DNA of 63,551 nucleotides, filler included, from Stramenopiles sp. TOSAG23-6 (Eukaryota): assembly GCA_900128565.1 (NCBI GenBank). It is 12 parts of 12 records of this genome, joined end to end, with 100 filler letters (N's around TTAATTAATTAA, not from the genome) between each part and the next. Parts side by side here need not be neighbours in the genome. Positions count along the whole stretch, not along the records: positions 33,073 to 41,186 come from LT636471.1; positions 41,287 to 49,390 come from LT636472.1; 10 more parts are not named here. The stretch is one strand, 5' to 3'. Positions 1 to 63,528 of the stretch are shown one piece after another (positions within the stretch are counted from its first letter, which is position 1; every line of letters starts with the position of its first letter). The translations under genes were made by a program, and so were the position numbers. The notes under the pieces are model-generated. The model ran no database searches and had not been told where the DNA came from. It saw nothing but the letters and a program-made list of their open reading frames with translations.

Positions 1-54
1 TACGAAATTTCGTATGAAAAAAAAATTTAAATTAGAAATTCATATAAAACATAC
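1..54 (-). mobile_element. Introner-like intron, 5' part (truncated by window start)
   Basis: TGT|GTATGTTTT...CATACGAAATTTCGTA matches the family 5' half. Confidence 0.8.
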
Positions 55-1477
55 ACAAATAGATGTTGATAACATTAATTTCATAAATTGTTCAATATCA
101 TATTTCTCTAATTTATCTGGCTTTTTTTGTGTATACACAAATGATGGTAAATATGAAGTAAATCCACTTGGAGGTGGACAAAATGTTGTGAAAAACTTTT
201 GATACGTTTCAGGGTATTTTTCAAGTAATTCTTCATCGGCTTTCTGTATTGTGGAAAATATTTTTTTTTTACCGAAAAAAAAAATCGTTAGGTACAAAAT
301 TTCGTACCAAAAAAAAATAAATTTGAAATTCATAATGAAAACGTACATCAACAATATCTTTAGCTGTAGCATATTCATATCGCGTAAGAGGAAACATACT
401 AGACAATGATCTAGCATCTTTATATTCAGTGAAACATCGATTCCATGGAATCATTTTTGTTTTTAATAAAAAGTCAATTGCTTTTTCCATTGACTCTTTA
501 GATATAAAATCATCTTTTTCCATTGACTCTTTAGATATAAAATTATTCTCTTGATTCATCTCTTCTTCATTAACTATGACACCATCAGTCGTATCATCAT
601 TTGTATCATCATCAATTACTGTACCTTCGATATCACTAAATAACTTAAAAATACTTTCAAGTCTTTCTACCGCTGGACCGCTTACAACATGTAGTATGAA
701 AAAATATTTTTTTTTTCGTAAAAAAATCGTTAGGTACAAAATTTGGTACGAAAAAATAAAATTTGAAATTCATGATGAAAAACATACAGATGATAAAAGA
801 ACTAGAAGTAAAACGACATTTAGTTTTTCTTCTGATGTTTTCTGATCTTTCATATCTTTGTGTTCAACTCCACGTTCTAAAAAGCGAATGTTTCTCTCTA
901 TAATATGACCAGCTTTTATACCAGTTGGGAAAATATCGTCAAATTCAGTCATAATATAATGGAAAAACTCATGCGCTGTCGCCAGTCCATTAGATGTCTC
1001 AAATTTCGTTATAACAGATGCGGCAACACGGTCAAATTGATCAGTATTGAAATCATTCAATTCTTTTAGACTTTTCACTTCACTCGGTGCTAGCATACGT
1101 TTACTCCAGAATGTGTTTCGAAATATGTCCCTACGCTCAGATTCCTGGTTCTTTCTGTAAAACCAGTTTCCAATAAGTCCAATGATGCCAAAGAAACCAA
1201 ACATTCCCCAAGGCCAAGAAGACGGATCTACAAGGCGTTCACCCCATGTCGGCTCTTTTCCACTATTTTCAGCTGCTTTACTTGCAACTTGTTTTGAAGA
1301 TGAACAAAGTCTAGCACGTACTGCAAAATATGGTTCTATATTGTATACAGATAAACGCGATGAGTCACGATAGAAATACGTGTGTCGTCTAGAAGCTTTC
1401 GTGATTCCAAGATGAACTTGTCGGAAATATCTCGTCATTACCGCTCGTGGAACAGCTCTACTCAAGAGATGCATCAT
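55..1477 (-). CDS. Hypothetical protein, probably mitochondrial (presequence-like N-terminus, one TM helix); exons 1477-788, 688-347, 243-55; 3' end runs off the window
   Basis: Three ORF-track fragments join in frame (690, 342 and 189 nt exons) once repeat introns are removed; Arg/Ser-rich N-terminus; hydrophobic WGMFGFFGIIGLIGNWFY. Confidence 0.7.
244..346 (-). mobile_element. Introner-like intron, GT...ATAC-AG (canonical end)
   Basis: GAT|GTACGTTTTC...GTACCTAAC...CACAATACAG|AAA GCC, in frame. Confidence 0.9.
689..787 (-). mobile_element. Introner-like intron, GT...CTAC-AT
   Basis: TCT|GTATGTTTTT...CATACTACAT|GTT GTA AGC restores the frame; the next AG is out of frame. Confidence 0.85.
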
Positions 1478-7077: not shown

Positions 7078-7968
7078 TTAGACAAACACTATTTTTTTCT
7101 TTGTTATGTTGACACTTGATTTTTTAGATGGCTCAGAGGATGACAAACTTGCCTTTGCAATTACAACAGATGGTTCCATCAATGGGTATGTATACTTTTC
7201 ACTCATTACAGTAGATTCGGTATCAACATGGCCATTGCTAGCAATGTGTTTTTGTTTTGGTGAAAAACTTGCAATTGATGATTTTGTAGTTTTCATCAAC
7301 TCCTTCATTTGACGTTGCATTGTCTCACGCATATCCTTTAATTCGCGTTCTTTTTCTTCTTGTGTTTGCGGTCCTTTTTCATAATTTTCGGATGTATCTT
7401 CAGTAGAAGCTGAATGAGAGGCGTATTTATACGAAATACTATCATCTTCCCAAGGACTGACTAATGACGTTTCTCTATTTGATGTTTCATCTTTTCTTTG
7501 ATTTTGTTGCTTTGATAGTATATTAGATTTTTTATGATGTTTAGGATCCCTACGACTTAGTTTTGTTTCAAGTTTGACTTTTGAAAACTCCTTTGTCTTT
7601 GTAGGCACATGCCTTGGAGACATTTCTGAAGCCTCAGCCCATTGCACTGATACATTTTTACCCATTGTCTCTTTCGATGATGAAACAATAGTTTTTGCTG
7701 TAGGTATTGTTCCTGTGGCTGAAGGTACAGTACCAAAGGATATACATCGATCTAAAAGTATTATTCGTGTTGGAAAAGTTGTACTTATTAAAACACGGAA
7801 CACTCTTCAATGTATGTCCCACCTCCTTCAAATTCTGTATCCGAGTTAAGTAAAATATTGAATGACAATATTGTTCCATCACGGTGAATACCACATATAT
7901 AATAAAAAAATATTTTTTTTTTTTTACCGAAAATAAAACAAAAATTGTTAGGTACAAAATTTTCTACC

Positions 7969-7999
<31 letters not shown>

Positions 8000-8156
8000 T
8001 ATGATGATGAAAACGTACATGATCTTTTTGCATTTACATTTGTTGTGTTTTTTCTATTATTTTCTTCTGGAACTTCATATTTTACAAAAAATAAATCTCG
8101 AAATTGAAATGAATTAATATCAAACGCATGACGATGTGCCATTTTTTGAAATACAC
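7078..8156 (-). CDS. Fe(II)/2OG dioxygenase-like fragment followed by a low-complexity region; 5' truncated; frame break near 7790
   Basis: DLFFVKYE...RSCGIHRDGTILSFNILLN...FEGGGT after removing intron 7895-8018; link to ORF 7078-7803 unresolved. Confidence 0.55.
7895..8018 (-). mobile_element. Introner-like intron, GT...ATAT-AT, with an internal (AT)n expansion
   Basis: TCA T|GTACGTTTTC...TTATATAT|GT GGT ATT CAC gives RSCGIHRD. Confidence 0.85.
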
Positions 8157-8226
8157 GAGTATATATTATGAAAAAATATTTCAAAAAAAAAAACTTAAAT
8201 TTGTTAGGTACAAAATTTCGTACGAA
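8157..8226 (-). mobile_element. Introner-like intron, 3' half at a contig end
   Basis: TTCGTACGAAATTTTGTACCTAAC...AAATATTTTTTCATAATATATAC; exact acceptor not determinable. Confidence 0.75.
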
Positions 8227-8326
8227 NNNNNNNNNNNNNNNNNNNNNNNNNNNNNNNNNNNNNNNNNNNNTTAATTAATTAANNNNNNNNNNNNNNNNNN
8301 NNNNNNNNNNNNNNNNNNNNNNNNNN
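8227..8326. other. Artificial contig spacer N-TTAATTAATTAA-N (also near 16535, 24786, 33017, 41231, 49435, 57636, 58828, 60020, 61212, 62404)
   Basis: Identical all-frame-stop linker flanked by N runs, 11 times. Confidence 0.97.
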
Positions 8327-15505: not shown

Positions 15506-16436
15506 ATGTCACAACATATAACAATATGTCCTTTCCCTCTAACTTATGCAGGGGGAAAGTGTACTTTCGACTGCTATATTCCCACGTTCTCAAAAAAAGT
15601 ATATGAAAATACTGATGACGTGCAAACAATCACTTCCGGTATTGTTTTACTACTGTTGACATTCTTACTAGTCTCCAATATGCTAAACCCAAAGAAAAGA
15701 AAGCGTATTGGGGTCAATTCAATTATTTTTGCTAGTTGGAATATACTGCTAGCCCTTTTTTTTCCTAGCGTAATATTTGGCACACGTAGTGTTGTCTGTG
15801 CAAATGACAGAGCAGTCACACAGTCTCGTTACTCTATATTTTCCTCCAAAGGATTTTGGTGTATGTGGCAAGGAATAACTCTTTCATATTTTGTATTGGT
15901 TGCAACTTATCTTTGGTGTCGAACAGCAGTACAACTTCTATATCGTGTCCATTCGCGGAAAGTAAAAACACCAAGTCGAAATAATGAAAAAAAATCTCTA
16001 TATTTATGCTTTATTTTGCCTTTTATACAAGTATGTCTAATGGCAACTTTTAGAGTGTATGGCTACAGTAGTCCTGTAATGTATTGCTTCTTTGCTAATA
16101 CTTCAAAGAGGCAGAATGATAGAGCAAGTAATTGGCAACCTTGGGTGTTTTTTTATGTGCCAATAGCAGTTTCATGGGCTTGTGGTACTTTTTGCTTAGT
16201 GAAATCAATCTTTCGAATGGCTAGTGTTATGTACGTTTTCAAAATTAAATTTCGAATTTATTTTTTTCGTACCAAATTTTGTACCTAACGAATTTCGAAT
16301 TTAAAATAGTTTTTTTCCATCCATGAGAGCCACTGGAATTGACCTCAAGAGTCTCCGTGGGCCGCTATTATATACCGTATGCTTTACAATTGTCTTAGCT
16401 CCTGTGTTCTGTGTACGTTTGTATATGAAATATCAT
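15506..16436 (+). CDS. Multi-pass GPCR-like protein (cAMP-receptor/Frizzled-like 7TM); exons 15506-16230 and 16325-16436; 3' truncated
   Basis: Serial TM helices, CMWQG and YCFF extracellular Cys pair, WVFFYVP. Confidence 0.65.
16231..16324 (+). mobile_element. Introner-like intron, GT...ATCC-AT (an in-frame GAG acceptor at 16327 is also possible)
   Basis: GTT AT|GTACGTTTTC...TTCCATCCAT|G AGA GCC. Confidence 0.8.
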
Positions 16437-16490
16437 GTACGTTTTATTTTTTTTCAAATTCGAATTTTTTTTCGTACGAAATTTTGTACC
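16437..16490 (+). mobile_element. Introner-like intron, 5' part at a contig end
   Basis: CAT|GTACGTTTT...TTCGTACGAAATTTTGTACC. Confidence 0.8.
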
Positions 16491-17252
16491 NNNNNNNNNN
16501 NNNNNNNNNNNNNNNNNNNNNNNNNNNNNNNNNNTTAATTAATTAANNNNNNNNNNNNNNNNNNNNNNNNNNNNNNNNNNNNNNNNNNNNTCAATTGCAG
16601 ATGACTAGTATAAATGCAATTGGTTGGGGTTTTCAGTGTTCTTTACGTACGAACAAATGGATGAATTCGAGTTAGATTATCGGTAGATTTGATTAAAATA
16701 TATCGAGTTAGTATGTATATTCAGAATTGAGTAATGAATGTACAGAGAAATGGAGAGTGTACGGGATGTTGGTATGTAGTATATTCTATGTCAGGTGGCC
16801 TTACTGATAAGTGTTATACGACAATTCAAGTAGAGAAAATAGAGAGAGCAGTATTTAACTTTGAGAAACTAAGTAAATAGTGAAGTGATTTTATTGTAAG
16901 ATAGAAATAAAGCTGTTATAAACCTTGTCACGTGATATTAATAGCAAAGTAGAACATTCTGCTCCATTCAATGAATGTAGTTGTATATATTCTATACAGA
17001 ACTTTGTTGTGTTTAGTGTCGAGGTGTAGTAGCAAACTTTACAAGTATAATAGTAGTTGTTGTTAGTGTTGGCCGTTAAGAATGTTAACCGTTTTCGGCA
17101 CTTTTTCTTAATCGAGTGTAGTCTCAGACAAACACGAAATCTTGGAACTCGTAAATAAAGTGAACCATTTTGAAGTGGTTCACATTTTTGTAAGCACGAA
17201 ATCTTGGAAATCTGAGCTACGCCAAATGCCCCTCTCTGATGTACGAAGTACA

Positions 17253-27246: not shown

Positions 27247-29144
27247 ATGTCTGAGGCGCCAATTACAACGCCAGATAGTACTTCAACATCTCACGTCTTT
27301 GGCACAAATAATCAGTATGCTACTTCTGAGTTTCTACTTGCATTTTTAACTGCTTTAGGTTTTACAATGTTGCTGAGTCATGCAATTCTTTGTCGATTTA
27401 AAGTGACTTGGTTATCTGAAGCCTCGTGTGCAATTTTTCTCGGCGCATTTTTTGGGGGTATCTTGGGGCTTATTCCCGGCGAAGATGTTGAAACCATGAA
27501 AGAAAAAGTAATCTTTTTCAGTCCTTCAATATTTTTCTGTGTATTTCTTCCGCCAATTATATTTGCATCTGGATATCATATGAAGGGAAGTTTCTTTTTC
27601 TTTAACATGGTCAAGATTTTAACATTTGCCGTCATTGGTACTTTCATCAGTGCTTGGATATTTGGTGTATTTCTGTGGTGTTTTGGTAAAATTGGTACGT
27701 TTTCACAATGAATTTCAAATGTAATTTTTTTGCGTACGAAATTTTGTACCTAACGAATTTTTTTACAAAAAAATAGTTTCACAGTACATGTATTTCTGTG
27801 GAATTTTCTTTTCCTGAAGCTCTGACGTTTGGTGCTCTTATTAGTGCTACTGACCCGGTTACGACTCTGGCTATCTTTGACTCTCTAAAAGTAGACCCAC
27901 ATCTTTTTTATATTGTTTTTGGTGAAAGTGTCTTGAATGATGCTGTCTCAATAGTTTTATACCATACATTTGCTAAATTTATTGGAACAACACCGAAATC
28001 TGGTACTGCTTTGTTTGCTATTCTTGACTTCTTTTTGATATTTTTTGGTTCAACTGCTGTTGGAGTTATTTGTGGTTGTTGTACTGCACTTCTTTACAAG
28101 CATATAGTAATTAATAGNNNNNNNNNNNNNNNNNNNNNNNNNNNNNNNNNNNNNNNNNNNNNNNNNNNNNNNAATGAAGTTCTAGAATTATCAGTATTTG
28201 TTATATTTGCATATGTACCATTTCTTTTAGGCGAGTGGTTATCTCTCAGTGGAATTGTTGCTATACTTTTTACAGGGATAACTATGAAGCATTATACATA
28301 TAATAATATGTCTAGAAACGCGAGAGAAAAGTCAGACACAATTATTGCCGTCTTGGCAAATATTTCAGAAACTGCTATTTTCCTTAATTTAGGTTCATCG
28401 ATGTGGAATTTTAATAGTTTTCATTTTGGTCTTGTGATTTGTGCATGTACAGTTTGTCTCCTCGCCCGTGCAGCTCATATTTATCCAATGTCTTTTATCT
28501 TAAACAAGTGTACTTCACGTTCGATTGCAAAAAATCAGCAGCATATGTTATGGTTCTCTGGTCTTCGTGGTGCTATAGCATATGCATTAGCGATGAACTT
28601 TCCTAGTGAGCATAAAGATTATGTAATTTCAACTACAATTATTATTGTCTTTGTCACTGTTGTTTTCTTTGGTGGAGCAACAGACTTTCTTTTGAACTGG
28701 CTCCGTATTCCTAGAGGACCTCAAACATTTCAAGCAAGTCATGAACGAAGTATGGTTCAATTTGTTTCTACAAATAGAATCGTACGCTTTGATAGGAGAT
28801 ATATTCAACCAATTTTATTAAGAAGACGTGGTAGCCGTAAGGTGAAACAAAACCTAAGTATGATTCAACTTGATACTGAAGAGGATACTAAAAAAGTGAC
28901 TGAAATTACTTTAACAACAAATTCTAGTTCACAATTGAATGAAGATAAACATCTAAGATGTGCATCAAGTGTTCTTGAAGAGTGGAAATCTTCAATCAAT
29001 GATTCAGATGAACATTTTTCATCTATTGATGCTGGAGACACTGTGTTGATCAATAAAGAAGTGGGCAACAGTGATAGTTTTGAAGATGAAGGTGTTTATA
29101 CATATGGCGTAATAGAAGCCCAAACACTAAATGGGAGTACCTAA
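27247..29144 (+). CDS. Na+/H+ exchanger, CPA1 (NHE/NHX) family; exons 27247-27694 and 27790-29144
   Basis: FLPPIIFASGY, FGALISATDPV, VFGESVLNDAVSIVLY, WFSGLRGAIAYALA. Confidence 0.95.
27695..27789 (+). mobile_element. Introner-like intron, GT...GTAC-AT
   Basis: ATT G|GTACGTTTTC...CACAGTACAT|GT ATT TCT gives KIGISVEF; the CAG at 27782-27784 is out of frame with this donor. Confidence 0.8.
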
Positions 29145-29251
29145 CTACATTAACAACACGGGTATAGTTTTAATAAATTCATGAAATTTCAATGTTTATA
29201 AAATACTTATTGCGAAAGAGATTTGGGGTATATAATATTAGCTAGAAATAA

Positions 29252-29461
29252 TCACGATATCTGCTTTGTGTCTTCATTATTGAACACGGACCACATACTA
29301 TTATTACCTGTAGATACTTTCTTTGGCGAATTTCCCGAACTAGCAATTTGGGCCCGTCTTTCCTTAGCAAATTTTGAGTATTGTGGTAGATAAATATTAG
29401 TGTACATTATAGCACCAACAAGTGAAGTAGTGAAGCCCATGATCAATACTTTTGATTGCAT
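29252..29461 (-). CDS. Small single-TM protein
   Basis: 69-aa ATG ORF with an N-terminal hydrophobic helix, in a gap between genes. Confidence 0.55.
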   Translation of the reverse strand: MQSKVLIMGFTTSLVGAIMYTNIYLPQYSKFAKERRAQIASSGNSPKKVSTGNNSMWSVFNNEDTKQIS

Positions 29462-32972: not shown

Positions 32973-33072
32973 NNNNNNNNNNNNNNNNNNNNNNNNNNNN
33001 NNNNNNNNNNNNNNNNTTAATTAATTAANNNNNNNNNNNNNNNNNNNNNNNNNNNNNNNNNNNNNNNNNNNN

Positions 33073-33161
33073 TATTTTGGAAAAATATTTCAAAAAAAAT
33101 TCGTTAGGTACAAAATTTCGTACGAAACAAAATTCGAATTTGAAAAAAAAATAAATCATAC
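33073..33161 (-). mobile_element. Introner-like intron, nearly complete, cut at a contig end
   Basis: T|GTATGATTT...TTCGTACGAAATTTTGTACCTAAC...TTCCAAAATA. Confidence 0.85.
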
Positions 33162-34621: not shown

Positions 34622-37600
34622 TTAATCTTCAATATCCTTTATATTTAATAATATATTGTGTAGTGCAATTTTAGATGCTGGTTGAATTAACACATCTGTA
34701 AAGAATGCACTAGTACTACTAATCCTTGATTGGTTCAATTCTGTATTATTTCGTGTATTTCGTCTAACCACACTATTTAGAGTTGCTACAGTCATTATAT
34801 CATTTATATCTTCTTCTGTAAAATCTACGATATTTTGGTACCAAAAACGATCACCATCACGAATACGGCGAAATTGCTCAACAATGATTGAATCTGCAAC
34901 TAATCCCAGAGTTTTATTGTAGGGTGAAAATGATTTGTTTGTGGAAATATTTTTTTCGTACAATTTGTTAGGTACGGAATTTCATATGAAAACAAATTAA
35001 AATGGAAGAAAAATAAAACATACATGATTTGTTTGTGGAAATGAAATGATGTGTAGTTGTTGTTGCTTGTGCCATCATACCTACAATTGCATCAATATTT
35101 GACAGTTGGGTGGTGTTTTCAATATGGTACAAACTGCGAAGCTTATTTTCAATAGAATCTTGAATTTGATTAACTGAAACTGAATGTTTGTTATTTTCAA
35201 TAGAATCTTGTATTTGATTAACTGAAACTGAATGTTTGTTGTAATACTTTGACATGTGTAGGAAGTCTTGTAATCCCTATTGTGAAAAAGTGATATTCTT
35301 TTAAGTTTAAAAAAAATCGTTAGATACAAAATTTCATAATAAAAAAATAATTTGAAATTCATGATGAAAACGTACATGGTCCCTTCCACGCTGAATATCC
35401 AAAGAAGTAAGGTCAAGACCACCTTGTGAGGGTAAACCCAACAAAGTATTTCTAATAGCTGAAACTGTCCGCACATCCAATGCCTGAGCTGGCAATATAG
35501 TCATTCCATGAAGAATGGCATCAATTATTCTTTTCTGAGTACCGATATCACTATATTCATCAATATCAAGAAAAAAACTATTTGATAGATGTAGTGTTGA
35601 TACACCACCTAAACAATTATTCAATATGTTACTATCATTCTTATATAAAGTATGTTCGTAACATAGAAGAAGCACATCATTGATTTGACTGTGAGGTAAT
35701 CGAAAGGCGGCAGTTGAAAATTCAGTAAGAACTCCTGGATCAATACTAGAATTATAACCCATATATGGAAAAGTTCCATTTACTCCTAATGCATTGTGTC
35801 CTAGAAGTGCAGGTAAATATTCATTATAAGTTATATGCTGCAATTCACTTTCTACGAATCGTCGCGATTCCTTGAACAACAATTCGTCGAGTACGATCGA
35901 ATCCATTGTAATACTATTATTATATCGTTTTAGTTCATGTCTAATCGCAGAAGCCCATCGGTTGTGTTCCCTATGCCATAGTGTATGCAATGCAAGTAAT
36001 CCTGGCTGTATGTTAGCTCGAGTGTCACCTGCAAGTGAAAGTTTTTCGGTTGGCTTTGCTGTAGGATTATCATTTGGAAGTCTATTTTGATTCAACATCA
36101 GTGAATATGGACATCTAGATATCGATTCTCTTCTTCTTGGGTGACTTTTGAATGTATCGTCTGTGAGACTGGCATTTGTATGTCGCCTATTTGCAAGTAA
36201 ACCAAACTTTCCAAGTCGCAATGATTTCTGGCGAATTCTATTAGAACCGTAAATAGTAGACCCATCTAAAAATGATGAAACTTTATTTGTCTGCTCTCGA
36301 ATAGGGTGTTCTCTACCATTATAAGAATTATTTGTCAAATTTTTATAATGATATATTGAACGTCTAAACCGGATGACTCGATTACCTTTTCCTTCTTTAT
36401 CAAATGTTTTATCACCTTTAGGTACCTTTATTGCAAAGTTTTCACTTGGTGAAGAATTGGGTTGAGGTGTAGTAAGACTAATATCATGAGCTAAAAATTG
36501 TCCAAAGTGAACCATCATATCGTTTAAATGTCTTGGAGACCATAATAAATCAATGTGCTTATTCGTTTTTGTATCATTCATTATCATTGATGATAAAGAA
36601 TTACTAATCTTTCTCGCACTGGGTCGATCTCGACCTGCTGGAGAATCATACTTATCACTATATGCAGCAGGGAAAAGACGTCTTAGAGAATCCCCTGCAC
36701 TTCCCCAATGCAAATGTTTCATATTGTTTCCGAATCCATCAGGAGATCTCCACTTGCTATCTCTTGTAATTGTATCATTTTTATACTTTATATACTTTGT
36801 AAAATACTTATAAATACGGTCCGCTGCACGACGAGAAAGTTTCTGAAAGGCAATGTCGTCTATTGTGTCACTATATTGAAACACGAAACTATTTAATTTC
36901 CTTTTTGGTACCTTTGATTTCATTGTTGGGCATGCATTGGGTGATGGAGAATGACAAAATTCACTCCTTTTTAGAAACACATTTTCTGTATCTTCAATGA
37001 TAGTAGATTTTTTTGTTTTTTTTATATCAAATTCTGTACCTAACATTTGTTTCTTAGTAGTATAGTGAAGAACATTTGAATCTGCACAGACTTTAATCTC
37101 TGTGTTTTGAGTTTCAATAAGAAATTCTCGTTCAATTATTGGAATATTGGATGAACCAATTTCTTTACAATTAGTTATATTTTCATCAATATTGCAAGAT
37201 CCACGGAGAAGGGCATTTCTTGTCCATCGTACTATAAGTCTAAGAGTACTCGAATACTGACCAAGACCAAGTATTGTGAAAAAATATTTCAATATTTGAA
37301 ATTCATTAGGTGAGAAATATTCTTAGTCAAAAAAAAACAAGTTTGAAATTAAATTGGACCACATACAAAATGTGCTGTTGATTCACTTTGACCTAAAAAC
37401 CCAGAGTTGGTTCCAATTTGAGTTGTTTGCATGAAAACCCAGGATTTAAGTTTATTCATTGTATAAATAGATAATTTTGCACCAATGCTGTCTCTACAAG
37501 AAACACCACAACAATCTTTCACTTTTATGCGTAACCATTGATTTCTCTGGGATGCATCAAGTCTATGATTTCCTTTCCCATTGTATAGAGCAGGAGGATG

Positions 37601-39953
37601 ATCTTGATGTCGAATCACAACAATATCTTGAAGTCCATTTCTATCAGCATCAAATACAAGCAATCCACGTCCTTCAATTGTATCATTAGAACCTAGGACT
37701 TTAGATGATGCATTTATAATGCTAAAACTATTACTCATACTTTCAATACAATACTTACTCTTATATTTAGAAGTCATCCACCATGAATGTATGTTAGGCT
37801 CAACCATGTACTGTGAACAGATGTTTTTTTAGTAAACAAAAATGTTAGGTAAAAATTTGCGTATGAAAAAAATCTACACTTTAATTCAATTTTGAAAATG
37901 TACATATAGTCTGCTAAAACTTTCCAAGAATTGTTTGCGGTCGGTATATAGTACATTGTTGGATTATTATTCCAGAATACATCATCATAGGTTGTCTCCG
38001 GGAATATCATACCATTTGCAACGATCAGCTCTAAAAAGCCATCATTGTTTGCATCAATCCAAGAAGTACCCCAACCCCAACCACTATAAAGCAAATTATG
38101 GAAAGATTCATAAATAGAATGTCTCGCATCGACAATATGACCAAGGTTAGTTGATGTATCACATGGATATTCTAGTATTGCATTGTTCAATGTTTTTAAA
38201 CTTTTTTGATCAAAGTGAGAAAATTTACGATTTCCTAAATTTCTATACATTACATTACCGGAAAGTTCAAAATAAGATGTAAAATCTCTCTCTTGAAGAT
38301 CTTCATTACCATATATCGAAGTAACAAAAATATCTAAGAGGCCATCTTGATCAAAATCTGCTACAGCGACGCCCATGCCATTTCTTTCAAATCCCAGACC
38401 AGAGTCTCTGGTTCCCTCGATAAATGTACCATTTCCATTATTCCAAAATATTGCAGATGTTCCAAAGTCTGCAGCGATAAATAAATCAGGCCAATCGTCA
38501 TTATCAAAGTCTGCAAATACAGGTGTAAATGAAAATACTCCACCAGGGGGCTTTGTGCCATCGTGTCCATATTGCTTTGAATCTCTACTATTAATTCTTC
38601 TTGAATAACCTTCAATGTCGACGCCTGCACTACTTGTTGTATCCTCAAAATAACCCGGAGCTTGTTTTCCTAGGTTTCTCAGCAAACGTGAATTACTCCA
38701 TCGCCAAGTTTTTAGATTCCTAGATATTCTTTCAGAAGAAGAATGATCATCATGTATACTAGATATTCTTTCAGAAGAAGAATGATCATCATGTATATTG
38801 ATTTTAAATCCATCTTTTATTGATTGTGAAAAAATATTTTTTTTAGTAAAAAATTATTGTTAGGTATACAATTTGGTACAAAAAAAAAAATTGAAATGGA
38901 AACGTACATTAATTGTTCGACATTCAACATGAAGTAAAAACGCCATTCTGTTACATATAAATCAAGGTATCCATCACCATCATAGTCAGCAGTTGCAATA
39001 GAAACACCAGATGTCAGAGAGCTATCATCTTCCAAAATAGCTGTAGCATTTCGTTCAAGCCCAAGTTCAATAAAGTGAGGAATTTTCTGTTTTGTGTTTG
39101 AATTGTTCTGTTTTGTGTTTGAATTGTTCATTTGATTAATAAAGAGTAAGTGACGGTTACCTCCAACAGTTGTAACGTACAAATCAAGATCACCATCATT
39201 ATCAGCATCAAACCAAAGAGCACCATTTGTCGAGGCTCCTGAAGAACGTAATCCTTTAGATAAACCAAATTTAGTAGTTACATCTTGAAAACCAGGAGTA
39301 TGACAAGTTTTATCGTTAGAGTCAATTTGTAATTTATGTATTAAATCTCCGCACGTATTACGGTAGAGGACACCATTACCAAAACTATTGATATCCTTTG
39401 AAATTTTAGAAACACCATTCCGAACCATGGCTTGCGTAAAAAATAAATCTGTCCAACCATCTCCATCGAAATCTCCAGCAGCAACTCCACCAGTCATTCT
39501 CTCAACTATGCAATTTGCTCCAAAGTCTGTACCCATCAACTCTCTTTTTAAATAATTCAAAAATATATCTTCCTCTTGAATATCAGCAAGTTTAAACTCA
39601 GTTTTGATTATCTCTGATATATGATTGAACATCGGTTCATCAAAAATACAGTTTGGTGCAAAGACTGGAAGCGACTGAAAATGTACCAAATTCGAAGAAA
39701 TTGGTGCAACCTCTTCGAATTTGGGAGAATGAATGGATACAGTCTTCTGAATAGTATTCTCATTGTCCAATAATCCAAGTAATTCCAACAACTTTTCATT
39801 TTCCTCGTCTGAAAGCTCATCTGATATTTGTCTTAATTGTCTCTCCAACTGCTCCTCACACAACACACGGTCAGTTAAATCTATACAGAAGGACAAGGAG
39901 GGTCTACTACACGAAGCTAAAGAAACTAGTAGTAGTATGGTAAGTACTTTCAT
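34622..39953 (-). CDS. Secreted FG-GAP/ASPIC-UnbV (CRTAC1-like) protein fused to an animal-type haem peroxidase; 6 exons, about 1617 aa
   Basis: Exons 39953-38908, 38818-37904, 37805-37367, 37268-35376, 35276-35024, 34929-34622 join in frame; DxDxDGxxDL repeats, QS..AHFGLG, GQFLAHD, GDTRAN, AFRLPHSQ, IQRGRDHGL, RDGDRFWY. Confidence 0.85.
34930..35023 (-). mobile_element. Introner-like intron ending AT, flanked by a 19-nt direct repeat (acceptor register ambiguous)
   Basis: T|GTATGTTTT...GTACCTAAC...ATTTCCACAAACAAATCAT|TT TCA. Confidence 0.7.
35277..35375 (-). mobile_element. Introner-like intron, canonical GT...AATAG
   Basis: Restores IQRGRDH|GL. Confidence 0.92.
37269..37366 (-). mobile_element. 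Introner-like intron, GT...ATAC-TT
   Basis: CAT TTT|GTATGTGG...CACAATACTT|GGT CTT GGT restores the ASPIC HF|GLG motif. Confidence 0.9.
37806..37903 (-). mobile_element. Introner-like intron, GT...GTAC-AT
   Basis: TAT AT|GTACATTTTC...CACAGTACAT|G GTT GAG; using the upstream CAG leads to a stop. Confidence 0.85.
38819..38907 (-). mobile_element. Introner-like intron, GT...ATCA-AT
   Basis: TTA AT|GTACGTTTCC...CACAATCAAT|A AAA GAT, in frame. Confidence 0.8.
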
Positions 39954-40254
39954 TTTCACTACAAGAATCTCATTATTAATACATTATGTGGTGGCGGATG
40001 ACGGTCATGTAACTAGTCTAGTGTGTGTGGAACAACAATCGTAGTAGAACAGTAAGTAGTAGTATTATAGTTAGAAACATTGATCAATGATCATGTCGAA
40101 TTTGCTTTTGCCGTTTGGGGATAAAATATAGCAGTCAAAACGGTCAAAACGATCTTGTTGATGTCATCTCATGTTCATCATAAAATTTTCATGAGGCAAT
40201 TCATGTAAAAAATAGTAATACAGACATCTTCTCAAATTCAGAATAAATAAACAA

Positions 40255-41121
40255 ATGGATTACTTTCAAGTTATACCAATTTCAAATCAGCAAATAAGCA
40301 ATGGTGTGATGTTTCCTTTGGCTCTGGCTCCTCTTCCTGGTTCAGATAAATCTTTTGACTCACTTGTGAAAGCTATCAAAAAGCACCGTAAGCACATCTT
40401 GACCACTACGTTTCAGCACGGTGCTCTCCTACTTCGAGGGTGGACAAATGATTCTCCTGAGGGTTTTGCCGATGTTAGTGAAGCGCTTAATTTAGAAAAG
40501 TATCCGTATGTCGGTGGAGCTGCACCTCGCACGAATGTAGTTCGAGACGTCGTTTTTACCACGAATGAATCACCACCTGAAAAGCCAATACCCTTCCATC
40601 ATGAAATTTCCCAAGTACCAAACCCACCTTCATACATTATGTTTTATTGTAACGTTGAACCAAATCAGGGAGGTCATACTCCTATTATTCAATCAGCTGA
40701 AGTTTGCGATTATTTGTTTCGAAAGTACCCTGAGTTTGCAAAAGAGCTAGAAAGCAAAGGTGTAAAATATATTAGGGTTATGCCAAAAGAGACAGATAAT
40801 GATTCTCCAATCGGACGCTCGTGGAAAGAAACATTTCAATGTGAAACTAAGGTTGATGCAGAAAGAGCAATGTCTAAAATTGGAAGCACATGGGAATGGT
40901 TATCTAATGGTGATGTTCGTGTTACATCTGCTGTAGTACCAGCATTGTACGTTGTCCACTTTTACTTTTGTTTTTTTTTTTCATACGAAATTTTGTACCT
41001 AACTGTAAAACCTAAAAAATCAAATTTTTGAAATATTTTCCTAAAATACTTACGTATAGATAAACGAAGTGGTCGTAAAATGTTTTTTAACTCAGTTGTT
41101 GCAGCATACACTGGATGGATT
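40255..41121 (+). CDS. TauD/TfdA clavaminate-synthase-like dioxygenase; exons 40255-40946 and 41052-41121; 3' truncated
   Basis: YVGGAAPRT, NESPPEKPIPFHHE, GGHTP, FFNSVVAAYTGW. Confidence 0.9.
40947..41051 (+). mobile_element. Introner-like intron, GT...ATAC-TT
   Basis: GCA TT|GTACGTTG...AAAATACTT|A CGT ATA GAT; the next AG gives an immediate TAA. Confidence 0.88.
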
Positions 41122-41186
41122 GTACGTTTTATTTTTTTTTTTTTNACAAAAAAATCGAATTTTTTTTTTTATAAAAATTTTGTACC
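41122..41186 (+). mobile_element. Introner-like intron, 5' part at a contig end
   Basis: ATT|GTACGTTTT...AAAATTTTTGTACC. Confidence 0.75.
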
Positions 41187-41286
41187 NNNNNNNNNNNNNN
41201 NNNNNNNNNNNNNNNNNNNNNNNNNNNNNNTTAATTAATTAANNNNNNNNNNNNNNNNNNNNNNNNNNNNNNNNNNNNNNNNNNNN

Positions 41287-41364
41287 AAAATATTTCAAAA
41301 AAAAATCGTTAGGTACAAAATTTCGTACGAAAAAAAAAACTTTTGAAAAAAAAATAAAACATAC
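41287..41364 (-). mobile_element. Introner-like intron cut at a contig end
   Basis: T|GTATGTTTT...TTCGTACGAAATTTTGTACCTAAC. Confidence 0.85.
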
Positions 41365-42586
41365 ATTGTGATTGTAAGCGTCGATGTGCCACGTCATCAC
41401 TTAGAGTATTTCGACTCATTGCCAGAGCATCAAATTCATCAATGAATAAGATTGATGGTTGCATGTCAACTGCTTGAGAGAAAATAGAAACTAGTGCTTT
41501 TTCACTCCCACCATTTATTGTGAAAAAATATTTTTTTTTTAGTAAAAAAATCATTAGGTACAAAATTTTCTACCAAAAAAAAAATTAAAATTCATAATGA
41601 AAACGTACAGTCCACTTACTTAATAGATCGGCTATATAAATTGTGATATATGTCATTAATTTTTGAAGACTTTGATAAATAATCGTCAATAATGAAAATA
41701 TGATAGTGTATATACAAGCATTTTAATTTGAATAATGTTGATCACAACGATAACCTACGGACAGGCTGAAATAAGAGGTCTTTGTGATTCAGAAGCAGTG
41801 GCTTCCGCAAGACTGGTTTTTCCGGTACCCTGTCCTGGAAAAAAATAATTTAAAAATTTGATTTTTTTCTTAGCTACAAAATTTCCTATATATATAAAAA
41901 CTATAAAAACAAAATTGAAATTCATGATGTATGTAAACGTACCGGTGGCCCATATAAGAGTATTGTAGTAGGCATTTTACGACAACCTGTAAGTAGCCTT
42001 GGATCAATTAAAGCAGACATTGTACAACAATCTCGCAATGTATTTTGGAAAAATATTTCAAAAAAAAAAACTTAAATTTGTTAGGTACAATCGCGTTATT
42101 CGCCCCAATGATATCTTCAAAGCAACGATTTGGAAATGATGCAGTAACTATTGGTTCTTTCTTGGTATCAGTTATTGTTTTTTTTGTATTGTTTGTGCCT
42201 TCTTCAAGCACTGGTTGTTGTTGATCTCTGTCAATACTTGCCTTGGCGTTATATGGCGGATAAATCCTTTGACTTTTGATGGACGGTTGAAATGATGCAG
42301 ACGAAGACATGGTGGTAGTATCAAACTGACGTTTATTCCCAATGATTTGTCCCTCGATTTCAGATAACCGTTTCGATACCATAGTAATACAGTTATCACA
42401 AACTATGCGAGTGCTATCACTCACTCGGAACTGTTCTAAATCATCTTGTCTGGAAACACAATGTTCTAATAGAGCGACAGCTTTGTTATACGAAGCATAC
42501 GACTGTAAAACTCCGCTGGTGTTATTACTGGATCCACTTAAGCCTTTTGTCACATATGACATTGCATGAGCTATTACAGAATCCAT
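41365..42586 (-). CDS. AAA+ ATPase of the katanin/VPS4/spastin type with an MIT-like N-terminus; multi-exon, 3' truncated
   Basis: FEDIIG, ILLYGPP|GTGKT, DLLSKWT|GGSEK, PSILFIDEFDAL. Confidence 0.88.
41513..41608 (-). mobile_element. Introner-like intron, GT...ATAA-AT
   Basis: TGG ACT|GTACGTTTTC...CACAATAAAT|GGT GGG AGT GAA restores SKWxGxSEK; the next AG gives TGA. Confidence 0.9.
41634..41758 (-). other. Non-family intron, probably GTAGGT...TTTATAT (alternative GTCCGT...TAG, 41632-41762)
   Basis: Needed to join ISAC(P) to ADLLSKW. Confidence 0.65.
41830..41942 (-). mobile_element. Diverged Introner-like intron, GT...GGAC-AG, inside the Walker A motif
   Basis: CCA CCG|GTACGTTTAC...CCAGGACAG|GGT ACC GGA AAA ACC. 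Confidence 0.92.
42038..42091 (-). mobile_element. Introner-like element, 3' half only
   Basis: Exon runs directly into TTGTACCTAAC...CCAAAATACAT; donor half absent. Confidence 0.75.
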
Positions 42587-43051
42587 TTGTCTGTAATTTT
42601 TAGTACACTTTTCATGAAATCACCTCTCTCACTCTCTTTCTCTAATCCTCTAATCTAGAACTTTGTGCCCTGATTTCAGATTTGAAATGATAGATGAATT
42701 GAAAACTTTAGAATTGTATTGAATCTCACTAATTTTGATTACAGATTGATACTTTGGAGGTCGTTTTGTTGATTAAATTGATTGGCTTGCAATATAGTCT
42801 TGATCTCAGATGAGATCTCTCACTTTAGATCGATCGATGATCGATCACTATAAAAAAATGCGCATTTTGATAATTTTTTTTTTCCTGGTGTCGGGGCAGG
42901 TTTGCGTATAATAGCATGCAAAAGCGCGGGAATTTTTCAAATTTTGAATTTTCAAATTTGAATTTTGAATTACATTCAAATTTTTGTTCGACAACTTGAG
43001 AGAGGAGCAACATAACAACAATAAGTCCTTCTTCTTAAGAATAAACGGAAA

Positions 43052-46000
43052 ATGCGCTACTCAATATTACAAATCATTATGCTTCTTCTATTGTTGTTTC
43101 CATCGATGTGCATTGCTGCAGATGCTGTAGATAAAGCCGATGATGCAAAAGAAACAACCTCGACCGAAAGAAAAACAAAAGTTCCCCCGACACCAGAAGG
43201 GAAAGCGGGTAAACCAGTACCAGAAGGGGAAACGGGCGAACCAGCACCAGAAGAGAAAGCACCAGAAGGGAAAGCGGGTGAAACAGCACCAGAAGGGAAA
43301 GCGGGTGAAACAGCACCAGAAGAGAAAGCACCAGAAGGGAAAGCGGGCGAACCAGCACCAGAAGGGAAAGCGGGTGAACCACCAGAAGGGAAAGCGGGTG
43401 AAACAGCACCAGAAGAGAAAGCGGGTGAAACAGCAGAAGGGAAAGCGGGCGAACCAGCACCAGAAGAGAAAGCACCAGAAGAGAAAGCACTAGAAGGGAA
43501 AGCGGGCGAACCAGCGCCAGAAGAGAAAGCAGGTGAACCAGCACCCACAGAGAAAGCAAGCAAAACATCACTAAAAGAATTAGTAATCGAAGGCAAACTA
43601 AAAGAAGAAGTTGCAAAAGCAGCTTTTGAGTTTTCGGAATCACCAATTTATGGAGCCAAAATCGTTGGCTCTGGATATAATGTACATTTTCAAAATTGAA
43701 GTTTTTTTTTCGTACCAAATTTTGTACCTAACAAAGAAATTGAATTTAAAATATTTTTTGATTATACATGCTGTGACTGGAATAATTCAGGGTCAAATTC
43801 TTTTGCATCCACTTCACGATGATGATTTGTACGTTTTGATTATGAATTTCAAATTTATGTTTTTTTTTCGTACGAAATTTTGTACCTAACAAATTTCGAA
43901 TTTAATTTGTTTTTACAATACATGTATGAACGTCTGAAAGAAGTAAACGGATATGAAGTACCACCTGGGGTGGTTTATTCTGACCAAAATAAAGGTGAAT
44001 TTGCGGAAGTGCCACATACATTTTCAAGTATTATAGAGTTTGCAGATGAAATTGCACGTGTATGTTTTCAAAATATTTCAAAAAAAACTTTTTTTGGTAG
44101 AAAATTTTGTACCTAACGATTTTTTTACTAAAAAAATATTTTTCACAATACGTTCAAATGGATTCAGTGCTACGGAAGGAATGTATATGTTAGACCGAAA
44201 GGTTATGGAAGTTCGAAAAATGATGCTTTATTCTGACATTACTTTGAAAAAAACAAATTATAATTTGTATACTTTGAAATTGGATAGTACGTTTTCAAAA
44301 TTAAATTTCGATTTTTTTTAGTACCAAATTTTGTACCTAACGAACTTTAAATTTGATATATTTTTTCACAATACTTCCAACGTCAACCCAATGTCGCAAC
44401 CTAGAAATATACTGAAGAGCACATTTGTAGAGGATGTTTTTCATTTACCTGATTGCTATTTTGCAGATTGCAATATAAAAGACGATGCAACAATACAACA
44501 AAAAGGTTGCAGAAACACTTTAGGTAGGAAAACATTTATCGAGTTTGGATTGAGTGAACTTGGTTCTGAAGATAAACCTACTCCAACATGCCTCGATTGG
44601 CTTACGAGTAAAACTAAAGATAAAGATCAGAAGAGAAAAGCTTTATTGGAGGCTGAAAAGAAATCCAAAAGTGTGAATAAAAGAAGAGGAAAATATTCGA
44701 AAAAAGTTGTCCCTATAGATTATGAAAATTGCGAATCAGTTTTCTTTGAAGATATTGAGGTAAGTGAAGAAGATGAGAAATTAATAACTAGCAAATATCC
44801 ATGTGATCCTAAAAAACCAAAAGAGAAGTGTGTAAAATTTGGGCAAGATACAGGTACAATTTGTAATATGCATGATTTTCATAAAATAGCCAAGTTTATT
44901 AACAGGTGGGGAACACATGTAATAAAACAAGCTTCATTTGGTGGTTCTATAGAAACAGTTGTACGTACGCGTAAAAACAGCCAATGGCCATATATTATTC
45001 AAGGTCAAGAAGTAATGTTTAACAGAGCCCCTGAAAATTTCATACCGGGTTTGGTAGCACGACATGCAGTATTCGATGGAAAATTTGCTCCACCTGGTTT
45101 TCCGCTTTCATTTCCATACAACACAACAAATAGTCATATTTCAATGGCTACTACAGATTTGGCTCGGCCTGAATCAGAGCGTGATGAAGCCAGTGAAATG
45201 GGAGTTCAATCAATTGAATACAATTTTAGAGGTGGCGTAAGGCCCCCGGTTCTAACAGAAAAATTGAGAAATACCGATGTAGCAGATTGGATTACAACTC
45301 TACCAGAAAATCCTGGCATTCTTGATGAATTTACAACTATGATTCCGATTGAAAACACTTTTTTACATCCAACAATGATGACCCAGATGATGACACTTTT
45401 AGAGAAAGAAAAAATGAAGAAAGAAGACAAATTAAAGTTCGAACAAAATGAAGCATTAAAAATGGCTCCAGATCTCCGTCCTGGTACGAGAATACTTAAA
45501 CCCGGCACGGGGCCATTTGGAGAGAATCAGGTAGAAGGTATTGAAGTGGCATATATACCAACTTATGACGAAGTAAGAGGAATTACTCCACCAGCTTTAC
45601 CAGTTGACGAAAACAAACAAGTTCCACCAGAAGAAAAAACACCAGAAGAAAACAAACAAGTTCCACCAGAAGAAAAAAAACAAGTTCCACCAGAAGAAAA
45701 AACACCAGAAGAAAAAAAACAAGTTCCACCAGGGAAGCAATTTCGATTTCGGGCTCCTCCCAAGGAAGAAAAGGAAACAAAAGGTGGAAAAGGGGCAGAT
45801 GATGAAAATAAGAAATCAAAAGGAGCAGATGAAGAAAAAAAACAAGAGGAGGAAAAAATTAAACGGAAAATGGTTATGATGAAAAATTTCCGATCTCTTC
45901 TGCTTACTAAGAGTGCTGTATTAGGTAATATGCTTGATTCAGTAGTAAGAATGAAAAGACAGATGGATTTTCAGGAGCAGCGGATGCATGGAACAATAAA

Positions 46001-47499: not shown

Positions 47500-48368
47500 T
47501 TAAAAAATAATTCCAAGGCCTCCTTCTTGACATGATGATCGTATAGGTATTGTAAAAACAATTTTGTCAGATTGATCATCTGATTCATGTATTTTGGAAA
47601 AATATTTTAGAAAAAAATCGTTAGGTACAAAATTTCGTACGAAACAAAAATAGAATTTGAAAAAAAAATAAAACCTCCATAGTACTTATTTCTGAACAAA
47701 GGAACTCCAGACTCTGTCCAGGATTCTGACAAGTCGCTAAAAGAAAGTTCTATTTCTTCATTGTCATTTATTTCTCGCCAAAAACCATGCATGTGTAATC
47801 TAACTGTTTGCATTCGTTTGCTGGACCATACATCAGTGTATATTTTCTTTCCCCTCCATTTCGCGACGCATATATTACAATCAGAAACACTTAGAATGAG
47901 TATACCCTCACGATAATCTATCGATTTAGTAATATTTCTTGGAGGATTCCAATGAAATCGACCCTCAGATATCTCAGTGATTAGAGTTTTTAATTTCTTT
48001 TTCTTATGTACTTTTTCTGATATTTTCATTGTACCATTAGGGTTAGGGTTTACACATTTCGACGTTTTCCCACTAAATGTTTTTCCTCGAATTCTGCTTA
48101 ACCATTCAGTGGAAGAAATAGAATGTTTATTCGTAGCATTTAAATAACTCTTAGACAAACCTGATTTTAACGTCGGTTTATACATGTTTTTCTTTTTTTG
48201 TTTTCGACAACAAGATTTTCCAGCACAATACTTCTTACTCCTAACATTTGTGTTACTTGTATCATAAATACTTTGAGAAGTAGTTGAAGATGCCGTGACA
48301 TCAGATGTTTCTTCACTACTACTCTCATCTTGGGATTCAATGTCTTGACTAGAAATAGTATTTCCCAT
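47500..48368 (-). CDS. Hypothetical protein, possible N-myristoylation (MGNTIS); exons about 48368-47679 and 47586-47500
   Basis: ATG ORF, then a family intron, then a 29-codon terminal exon. Confidence 0.6.
47587..47678 (-). mobile_element. Introner-like element with altered donor (GGAGGTTTT...ATAC-AT)
   Basis: Family core intact; GTAC replaced by GGAG. Confidence 0.75.
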
Positions 48369-49302: not shown

Positions 49303-49390
49303 GTACGTTTTATTTTTGTCAATTTCGAATTTATTTTTCGTACGAAATTTTGTACCTAACGATTTTTTTTTGAAATATTTTTCCAAAATA
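49303..49390 (+). mobile_element. Introner-like intron cut at a contig end
   Basis: GTACGTTTT...TTCGTACGAAATTTTGTACCTAAC...TTCCAAAATA. Confidence 0.85.
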
Positions 49391-49517
49391 NNNNNNNNNN
49401 NNNNNNNNNNNNNNNNNNNNNNNNNNNNNNNNNNTTAATTAATTAANNNNNNNNNNNNNNNNNNNNNNNNNNNNNNNNNNNNNNNNNNNNGCACTGTGGG
49501 CTATAAAAACCTTAACT

Positions 49518-62459: not shown

Positions 62460-63528
62460 CCTCATGAAAACGCCATTGAAGAACTTCGGAAACTGCAAAT
62501 ATTAAAGACGTCATCAGATGATCCAGATACTGTATGGCTTCATAAAAGTTTTCAAGTACAGTTGAAAACAGCTGTAAGTGAGTTGTGCACACCATGGCAA
62601 CCTGTGACAGAAGTTCAAGACGGAGAAGCAAAAATTCCTACAGAGGCATCTCTCATGGAAATGGCAACAAAGAAGTGGGATGCCGTTTTGCATTATTTGG
62701 TTGGCTCGTGGGACTCATGCGAGAGGAAACGAGTAAAAATTCAAAGAAAGACGAAATATCAACAAGTAAAGGTAAAGGTAAAGGAGGAGTAAAATTAACA
62801 GTAACAGTGAGACGTGCTGCACTTGACAAAGAATCTTCTTTATCATCTATGAAATCTGGTGGTCGAGGACCCCGTTTGATTATAACACATAAAAATGAAA
62901 CCATCACATCTGCAGGATATGAATTTTTGCTTCAAGAAACTAATGCTCAAATTTGGAGATTTTTAAAACGTTATTTTCAAGTATTAAATGGTAGAGATGC
63001 AGATATGGCATCTGCCATTAGTTTAGTGTTTAGGCTAGGATTTTGTGAATTAGGAAAAGGATATCAAACACAATCTTTGTCTCCTACTCAGTTCTCCATG
63101 CTTTCACATTTATCCGATTTTGGTCTAGTTCATATCCAAGATGTCAACGTTCATGGGGAGGGCAAATATCGCGGGAAAATTGGTTTAGTTCGTTGTTTTT
63201 ATCCAACACCTTTCGGTATAAATCTTTTAACAAATCATACTCTACAATCGAATGTACGTTTTCATCATGAATTTCGGAATAATTTTTTTTTCGTACGAAA
63301 TTTTGTACCTAACGATTTTTTTTTCATGTGAATATAGATATAAATGATTCATCGATAACTCGTACTACTTCTCAAACGAGATGCCATTTATTTGTGGAGA
63401 CGAACTTTCGAATATATGCATATACTACATCAGACCTTCATGTGTACATGTTAAAATTATTTGCTAATTTGTTATATCGACTTCCCAATATGGTTTTAGC
63501 GGTGATAAATAGAAAGTCCGCGACTTAT
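62460..63528 (+). CDS. TFB2: TFIIH subunit p52/Tfb2, partial; frame break near 62710; intron 63254-63339
   Basis: WDAVLHYLVG, ITSAGYEFLLQ, DFGLV, FYPT, FVETNFRIYAYT, LPNMV. Confidence 0.9.
63254..63339 (+). mobile_element. Introner-like intron, GT...ATAG-AT
   Basis: AAT|GTACGTTTTC...GAATATAGAT|ATA AAT; splicing at the AG gives ATA TAA (stop). Confidence 0.82.

Follow-up and report, generated by a model that had tools for sequence, protein, structure and literature searches.

Short introner-like elements in Stramenopiles sp. TOSAG23-6 whose predicted intron ends, mostly other than AG, often repeat the exon dinucleotide before the donor

The subject of this work is a family of short repeated elements in a 63.5-kb window (the whole stretch of DNA analysed, 63,551 nucleotides with filler, joined from 12 parts of the Stramenopiles sp. 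TOSAG23-6 assembly GCA_900128565.1), each copy of which appears, based on reading frames and homology, to constitute a whole intron in one of a number of unrelated genes. In 10 of the 18 complete copies, the last two bases of the intron are identical to the pair of exon bases that precedes the donor (viz. 7 AT/AT, 2 TT/TT and 1 GT/GT). The interpretation which we regard as having slightly better than an even chance of being correct is that these sequences form an introner family, an introner being a short non-coding mobile element that is tolerated within coding exons through being spliced out, and that they inserted at the DNA level with a 2-nt target-site duplication (TSD) which supplies the end of the intron.

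The copies were identified by scanning the window with an nhmmer profile built from its own copies. The 27 matches obtained include one antisense fragment of 41 nt, and one further copy broken by Ns was found by eye, giving 27 intron copies in 63.5 kb, of which 18 are complete and 9 partial (Table 1). The complete copies are 86-122 nt long, with the layout GTAYGT...TACCTAAC...RTAC plus two bases, and their consensus reads GTAYGTTTTCA..., followed by a T-run, CGTACGAAATTTTGTACCTAAC, T/A-runs and ATATTTTTCACAATAC, and then the two further bases. The branch-site-like box TACCTAAC (CTAAC) is located 27-54 nt before the intron end. The initial annotation of this DNA described the element ends, GTAY...RTAC, as a 4-bp inverted repeat; the 5' part of this description holds for all 18 complete copies, every one of which starts with GTAYGT, but only 9 of the 18 have RTAC directly ahead of the last two bases (10 if CTAC is included), the other ends being diverged. 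At least 8 different proteins are encoded by the host genes. Each of the 18 complete copies is in the sense orientation, the joined frames being open on the element's own strand. Seven of the nine partial copies have the longer open flanking frame on the sense strand; for the other two, a TauD alignment shows the copy at 41122 to be sense, and that at 42039 is not assigned. No Rfam family matched within the window. In metagenome contigs, scanning with a 16-mer core gave 118 stretches, none of which contained the element according to nhmmer, while a 20-mer scan gave only 4 chance matches in prokaryote genome contigs and none in viral contigs. A Logan-derived protein (P0001), which differs by one residue from the TauD-like exon, continues into the intron at 40947, and therefore at least one further data set or strain also contains this intron.

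The placement of the intron borders is based on the following observations. If the donor is placed at the G of GTAY, then only the register in which the intron ends two bases after RTAC joins the long upstream and downstream frames, and every one of the 18 complete copies behaves in this way. In the case of the five copies whose 3' ends are diverged, which are all of the AT/AT type, the border was taken as the in-frame position that aligns with the end of the family. When five copies are spliced from a minus-strand gene, a single open frame of 1627 amino acids results. For both of the TT/TT introns the joined product can be compared with homologues (a slash within a protein motif marks the junction here and in Table 1). 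Removal of the 105-nt intron at 40947-41051 gives ...SAVVPA-L-RIDKRSGRKMFFNS..., which aligns without gaps with 26 TauD homologues, and removal of the 98-nt intron at 37269-37366 regains the invariant motif AHF/GLG, again without gaps, in comparison with 18 homologues. The exon upstream of 41513-41608 has no Pfam match of its own, and the join in this case (...SKWT/GGSEK) is one which we take, from the AAA consensus, to fall between positions 39 and 40 of the AAA profile. The initial annotation had also proposed that removal of the element and one duplicate leaves the protein unchanged, and the frames restored in 18 of 18 copies, together with the motifs that run across both TT introns, are in agreement with this. 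The element and two bases thus appear, from frame and homology, to be removed, and this removal is presumably spliceosomal.

The introns delimited in this manner end in AT, TT or GT in 15 of the 18 complete copies and in AG in the other three; an AG at the border is found in none of the 15, and in three of these (including 41513-41608 and 43829-43923) an in-frame AG is absent from the entire interval of -45 to +60 around it. For both TT copies, the nearest in-frame AGs would delete residues that are present in the homologue alignments, and because of this a canonical AG cannot rescue the models for these copies. Transcript-derived proteins were searched for using a 1011-amino-acid exon and a 40-amino-acid read-through as queries, and none was found. 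As GTAYGT is a textbook donor of U2-type introns, a GT...NT register is favoured over an NT...AC register, which in the matched copies gives the same mRNA. Comparison with Na+/H+ exchanger structures at 27695-27789 decides nothing between the registers, the junction being located in a loop of variable length. Beside this intron, a 13-nt sequence (TGTATTTCTGTGG) is found 16 nt before the donor at 27695 and again from the last intron base onward (27665-27805, plus strand), the two occurrences being in different frames. An identity as U12-type AT-AC introns was considered and rejected. Introns of that type begin with ATATCCTT and carry a branch box (TCCTTAAC) 10-26 nt from the 3' end; when the present copies are read in this way the 5' end is ATGTAYGT, and the CTAAC box is located at the distance given above. 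End-to-end folding of the RNA gave inconsistent results, with z-scores ranging from -2.98 to +0.94 in six copies and below -2 in two of the six.

The match between the intron end and the upstream exon was earlier reported for 11 of 19 complete copies, and our count of 10 of 18 bears this out, with the TT/TT pairs at 37269-37366 (minus strand) and 40947-41051 (plus strand) and the GT/GT pair at 44060-44153 (plus strand) all found as described. The remaining eight copies show AT/AG (two), CG/AG (one), CT/AT (two), TT/AT (one), TG/AT (one) and TA/TT (one), and hence the mismatched copies, as had been noted, end mostly in AT (4) or AG (3), with a single TT. If the 5' and 3' dinucleotides are re-paired among copies, then a mean of 6.05 matches is expected, and 10 or more are obtained with P=0.007. 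Over positions -10 to +10, a locus-specific match is seen only at position -2 (13 of 18 copies versus 7.6-7.9 expected, P=0.0008). No information is carried by position -1, because T is present there on both sides almost everywhere: a T precedes the donor in 15 of the 18 complete copies (16 of 19 in the initial annotation), and in 21 of 24 copies if six partial 5' ends are included. Four copies have a 3' dinucleotide that is neither AT nor AG, and in three of them it is the same as their own flank. Further, the three copies ending in TT are not mutual nearest relatives, indicating that TT ends arose more than once. It is thus confirmed that the flank match is real and unlikely to result from chance, although the sample is small. 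Two variant descriptions of the target were rejected. A palindromic target predicts the pairs TT...AA and GT...AC, neither of which is seen, the TT/TT and GT/GT copies being direct repeats. A 3-bp NTG duplication would agree with the G that begins the exon after the intron in 10 of the 18 copies, yet 6 of the 10 matching copies lack this G.

In the favoured interpretation, that of a duplicating insertion, the element itself contributes a strong donor of the U2 type (GTAYGT) together with a branch-site-like box in its interior (TACCTAAC), and the intron ends two bases past RTAC. Insertion would have taken place in DNA at an xT/NT target, mostly AT, with a 2-bp staggered cut, and the duplicate of the target generated by fill-in would become the last two bases of the intron in most copies. 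Splicing of the element together with one duplicate would then restore the original mRNA. An exception would be a subfamily marked by ATGAATTT, in which the terminal dinucleotide, AT or AG, shows no dependence on the flank. As the 3' splice dinucleotide would in this scheme be the target itself (AT, TT or GT), the host splicing machinery must then accept 3' ends other than AG. It is a tentative suggestion, which we think has well under an even chance, that the 3' splice site is not recognized as a dinucleotide but is set by position (either two bases past RTAC or at a fixed reach from the branch box), with any NT that a 2-bp target duplication leaves (AT, TT, GT) being accepted. If this were so, insertion of the element at nearly all xT sites would be neutral, and the spliceosome of the host would no longer require AG in an entire class of introns that begin with GT. 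The significance of a duplicating insertion, if true, is that the footprint of the insertion, and not AG, would define the end of the intron while its start stays a textbook GT donor; the two splice sites would be separable experimentally, and such introns would show how far the recognition of 3' splice sites can relax.

The proposal of a 2-bp duplication, as made in the initial annotation, is upheld only in part, and the results that weigh against it should be considered together. The copies were divided into subfamily A, which has ATGAATTT in the first 40 nt, and non-A copies, which lack it there. Of the 10 non-A copies, 9 show the match, including every match other than AT, and these matches, the co-variation of non-palindromic dinucleotides and the reading frames all support a duplication. 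However, in subfamily A (8 copies) the match is seen in only 1 of 8, the introns ending in AT (5) or AG (3) with AT, CT, TG, CG or TT in the flank. Fisher's exact test on the two rates gives P=0.0029, and in permutations within each group 9 matches compare with 4.3 expected for non-A copies (P=0.0012) and 1 with 1.9 for subfamily A, but this division of 18 copies was made post hoc, after the data had been seen, and is to be regarded as a hypothesis, not as an established result. Because subfamily A copies end in AT or AG whatever their flank, their terminal dinucleotide seems to travel with the element; it is probably carried with it, or was fixed secondarily. If the division holds, it may be hypothesized that a 2-bp duplication describes most subfamilies and that subfamily A spreads without duplication or by another route. 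The existence of duplicating and non-duplicating classes in one sequence family, if real, would bear on whether introners spread via DNA or RNA.

The remaining points of this kind concern the strength of the signal and the structure of the element. AT is palindromic, and therefore in AT/AT copies a direct repeat looks the same as a 6-nt inverted repeat or a plain target preference; the signal depends on the three non-AT copies, and when the five copies with diverged 3' ends are dropped, 5 of 13 match versus 2.6 expected (P=0.064). The longer inverted repeat proposed earlier (ATGTAT...ATACAT) did not stand, as the first 40 nt compared with the reverse complement of the last 40 nt scored no better than shuffled sequences (mean z of 0.8). 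The terminal inverted repeat is thus limited to 4 nt, which is below the 6-nt criterion given in the sections of PMC9860276 drawn on here. Flank repeats longer than 2 nt are seen in three copies, viz. 19 nt at 34930-35023, 7 of 8 nt at 38819-38907 and 4 nt at 44060-44153, and these are not predicted by a fixed 2-nt stagger. Neither an intergenic copy nor an antisense intron copy, which would indicate insertion independent of splicing, was seen in the window, and no autonomous partner element was seen either. The age of the copies also lends no support. The identity to the nearest neighbour is 0.908 for mismatched and 0.905 for matched copies (P=0.96), with no decay of the match with divergence, and the apparent age signal, in which the mismatched copies are closer to the global consensus, is rejected as a subfamily effect. 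It had been suggested that copies ending in AG have drifted with age toward the canonical acceptor. This is not supported, because 2 of the 3 AG-ending copies are among the least diverged and the mismatched copies are not older.

An unlikely alternative, though one that accounts for several of these points, is that what moves is the intron in its entirety (GT...AT or GT...AG), without any duplication, for instance through reverse splicing and reverse transcription or through blunt insertion. In this case the xT before the donor, mostly AT, would reflect an insertion or 'protosplice' preference, and the matches would be a coincidence of two AT-rich preferences. Subfamily A, with its fixed ends and varied flanks, fits this explanation, as do the lack of an inverted repeat beyond 4 nt and the location of all 18 complete copies within genes in the sense orientation; 7 of the 10 matches, being AT/AT, are uninformative, and families with and without TSDs are described as coexisting within one species (PMC9860276, in the sections covered). 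However, the two TT/TT copies and the GT/GT copy are not predicted by it, nor is the agreement of 3 of the 4 ends other than AT and AG with their own flank, and the results of permutation, both overall and within non-A copies, are contrary to coincidence. As the TT-ending copies are not close relatives, their TT was not derived from one master copy.

Quite unlikely, in our judgement, is the capture of the elements at chromosome breaks or by short-homology recombination, by which direct repeats of 0 to about 19 nt would be produced, in place of the fixed 2-bp duplication of a transposase, and 2 nt would merely be the commonest length. The three longer flank repeats noted above are of the kind expected from this process, the 19 identical nt at 34930-35023 being located exactly at both borders, and the flanks of subfamily A often share T alone, or nothing; short direct repeats also border nonconventional introns, according to the parts of PMC12621601 and PMC7789003 considered here. 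However, across the 18 copies no match specific to the locus is seen from position -3 through position -10 (P=0.17-0.86), and because of this the longer flank repeats are to be regarded as exceptions. Plain microhomology joining, moreover, leaves one copy of the homology and not two.

It is very improbable that the elements are not introns but are eliminated from the DNA of a somatic nucleus in the manner of ciliate internal eliminated sequences, leaving one flanking dinucleotide, for although removal of the element and one repeat restores the gene by the same arithmetic as with TA-bounded eliminated sequences, all 18 complete copies are sense, each has a GTAYGT start and a TACCTAAC box that elimination does not need, one diverged copy ends in a canonical CAG, and the borders are not TA. 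A Stowaway-like miniature inverted-repeat transposable element (MITE) of the Tc1/mariner type was likewise rejected, the flanks being AT, TT, CT or GT, with TA in only 1 of 18 5' flanks; if the TA inside both termini (G-TA-Y and R-TA-C) is instead taken as the Tc1/mariner duplication, that register would not restore the mRNA.

Table 1. Complete and partial intron copies of the element family in the window. Dinucleotides are given as exon -2,-1 / last two intron bases.
Positions	Strand	State	Subfamily	Dinucleotides	Features	Boundary
244..346	-	complete	A (ATGAATTT)	AT/AG		frame
689..787	-	complete	A	CT/AT		frame
7897..8018	-	complete	non-A	AT/AT	diverged 3' end	3' boundary by frame and alignment
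16231..16324	+	complete	non-A	AT/AT	diverged 3' end	frame; in-frame AG alternatives at +3 and -15
27695..27789	+	complete	A	TG/AT	Na+/H+ exchanger gene; offset 13-nt repeat in both flanks	
34930..35023	-	complete	non-A	AT/AT	last 19 intron bases = last 19 exon bases before donor	
35277..35375	-	complete	A	AT/AG	intron end ...CACAATAG	peroxidase profile runs to exon end ...RGRDH/G
37269..37366	-	complete	non-A	TT/TT		frame; homology (see text)
37806..37903	-	complete	non-A	AT/AT		frame
38819..38907	-	complete	non-A	AT/AT	exon end CAATTAAT and intron end CAATCAAT agree at 7/8	frame
40947..41051	+	complete	non-A	TT/TT		frame; homology (see text)
41513..41608	-	complete	A	CT/AT	AAA ATPase gene	downstream exon GGSEK: residues 2-49 on AAA profile 41-87
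41830..41942	-	complete but diverged	A	CG/AG	canonical GT...AG	next exon (GTGKT...) from AAA profile position 8; exon before ends ...LLYGPP
43682..43769	+	complete	non-A	AT/AT		frame
43829..43923	+	complete	A	TT/AT	no in-frame AG within -45..+60	frame
44060..44153	+	complete	non-A	GT/GT	identity extends to 4 nt (ACGT)	by reading frame only; host gene without homologues
44287..44376	+	complete	non-A	TA/TT	only non-A mismatch	frame
63254..63339	+	complete	A	AT/AT	shortened 3' half	3' boundary by frame only; Tfb2 profile coordinates do not fix it
1..52	-	partial		GT before donor	cut by window edge	
8164..8226	-	partial		ends ...AT	3' half only, cut by gap	
16437..16490	+	partial		AT before donor	5' half only, cut by gap	
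33073..33161	-	partial		AT before donor	cut by gap	
41122..41186	+	partial		TT before donor	cut by gap; second intron of TauD-like gene	homologues continue directly after ...GWI
41293..41364	-	partial		AT before donor	cut by gap	
42039..42090	-	partial			5' half absent	canonical 3' boundary out of frame with AAA reading frame
47588..47660	-	partial		ends ...ATAC AT	5' end diverged or deleted	
49303..49390	+	partial		AT before donor	cut by gap	

Two further stretches resemble the element and are not part of the counts. The antisense fragment at 37012-37052 (plus strand; nhmmer E=6e-5) is a 41-nt core-like stretch within a coding exon of a minus-strand gene, where it encodes ...MLGTEFDIKKTKK..., and it may be an exonised piece or a chance match. 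A candidate extra copy at 29203-29298 (minus strand) starts with GTATGTGGTCC, an unusual 5' end that it shares with the TT/TT copy at 37366; its 3' border was not placed.

The window as a whole is A+T-rich (G+C content of about 33%) and eukaryotic, and its genes, according to profile matches, include those for a Tfb2-like protein of TFIIH, a Na+/H+ exchanger, an AAA ATPase, a dioxygenase of the TauD family and a fusion of FG-GAP/ASPIC and animal haem peroxidase domains. From an Atlas comparison, the Tfb2-like protein can be assigned to eukaryotes but no more narrowly. The public runs in which the region is contained are marine, viz. two small DNA runs of one coded organism, seawater metagenomes and poly(A) metatranscriptomes. 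The parts of the window are joined by linkers consisting of 44 N, TTAATTAATTAA and 44 N, and five of the first six of these (8227-8326, 16491-16590, 32973-33072, 41187-41286 and 49391-49490) adjoin a copy of the element on one or both sides. As 7 of the 9 partial copies end at an assembly gap or the window edge, it is apparent that the family breaks the assembly. With one element intron per 2.3 kb in the window, severe breakage of the gene models would result in this organism. Between 57592 and 62459, five TTAATTAATTAA linkers occur at an exact spacing of 1192 nt, the pieces between them being exactly 1092 nt in length. This regular spacing looks like that of short contigs strung together, and the adjacency of sequences across linkers is therefore untrustworthy.

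Some features of the host genes are also of interest. The gene at 34625-39950 (minus strand), when spliced according to the model, codes for a secreted protein of 1627 amino acids, in which FG-GAP/ASPIC (CRTAC-like) repeats are joined to an animal haem peroxidase domain. An orphan gene of 1330 amino acids, which hosts four copies, contains a run of PEGKAGE-type repeats (43150-43560, plus strand) after a signal-peptide-like N-terminus. Protein searches found no relatives of the 1011-amino-acid exon, which belongs to the host gene of the GT/GT copy, or of the 40-amino-acid read-through of one copy. Short in-frame tandem duplications are present in exons at 38700-38800, 39085-39130 and 35100-35200 (minus strand) and at 45600-45760 (plus strand), the sequences involved being IHDDHSSSERIS (twice), NNSNTKQ (twice), NKHSVSVNQIQDSIEN (twice) and repeats of KQVPPEEK, and small tandem duplication seems to be common in this genome. 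The AAA ATPase gene needs one additional intron, not of the element family, at 41609-41829 (minus strand); a candidate model, GTAGGT...AAAG, keeps the frame in this case but leaves about 11 residues more than the AAA consensus.

The use of splice sites co-opted from a TSD is already known from Micromonas, Chrysochromulina, Fritillaria and Amoebophrya, and the comparisons that follow are based on selected sections of the sources cited. In Micromonas pusilla and Aureococcus anophagefferens, MITE-like introners (Huff et al. 2016) have TSDs of 3 nt and 8 nt, respectively, with clear inverted repeats and GY-AG borders (PMC11282704), and in Micromonas families with and without TSDs are found within one species (PMC9860276). 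The present family is similar to these in that short non-autonomous repeats constitute whole introns, one splice site is carried by the element while the other comes from or overlaps the TSD, and the mRNA is restored. However, it differs in having a 2-nt repeat, an inverted repeat of 4 nt, and ends of AT, TT or GT in 15 of 18 copies. A similar arrangement is that of Chrysochromulina sp., in which no inverted repeats are evident, with the 5' splice site likewise carried by the element and the 3' site co-opted from the TSD (Gozashti et al. 2022, PMC9860276), but there a 4-bp TSD gives the 3' site AG, whereas here 2 bp give a non-AG dinucleotide. In Symbiodinium, a 4-bp TSD gives the 5' site (PMC11282704, PMC9860276). 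For the MITE-derived introns of Fritillaria borealis (Henriet et al. 2019), a duplicated TAC gives AC and the borders are mostly AG-AC or AG-AT (PMC11282704). These introns show the same derivation of a non-AG 3' site from a duplicated exonic motif, and the spliceosome there tolerates such sites. However, their 5' site is non-canonical as well, whereas in the present family the donor, GTAYGT, is of the textbook kind and what is unusual is confined to the 3' end.

Repeated non-canonical introns with short direct repeats overlapping the exon/intron borders are also found in another marine protist, Amoebophrya, where the direct repeats measure 3-5 nt, hairpins are formed by inverted repeats of 8-20 nt, and none of the dinucleotide patterns at the borders is dominant (Farhat et al. 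2021, PMC7789003). The present copies, in contrast, have no long inverted repeat, and only two of the six that were folded are more stable than shuffled sequences. The nonconventional introns of euglenids and diplonemids, for which a MITE origin is suspected, share with this family the borders other than GT-AG and the short direct repeats at junctions, and those of marine diplonemids were also predicted from single-cell genomes without RNA data (PMC12621601, PMC11282704). However, they lack a U1-type donor and their G/C-rich ends pair, whereas here GTAYGT is conserved in 18 of 18 copies and the A/T-rich ends barely pair. In the portion of the literature covered, from which the per-family TSD tables of PMC9860276 are excluded, no description was found of an introner family that begins with GT and has AT, TT or GT as its end. 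Pipelines and surveys such as those in the methods of PMC12130899 accept only GT/GC-AG or AT-AC borders, and due to this element families of this kind are invisible to annotation and to introner surveys. In comparison with the known systems, what is different here is the repeat of 2 nt, the strong canonical donor found together with a 3' dinucleotide that is free, and the near absence of an inverted repeat.

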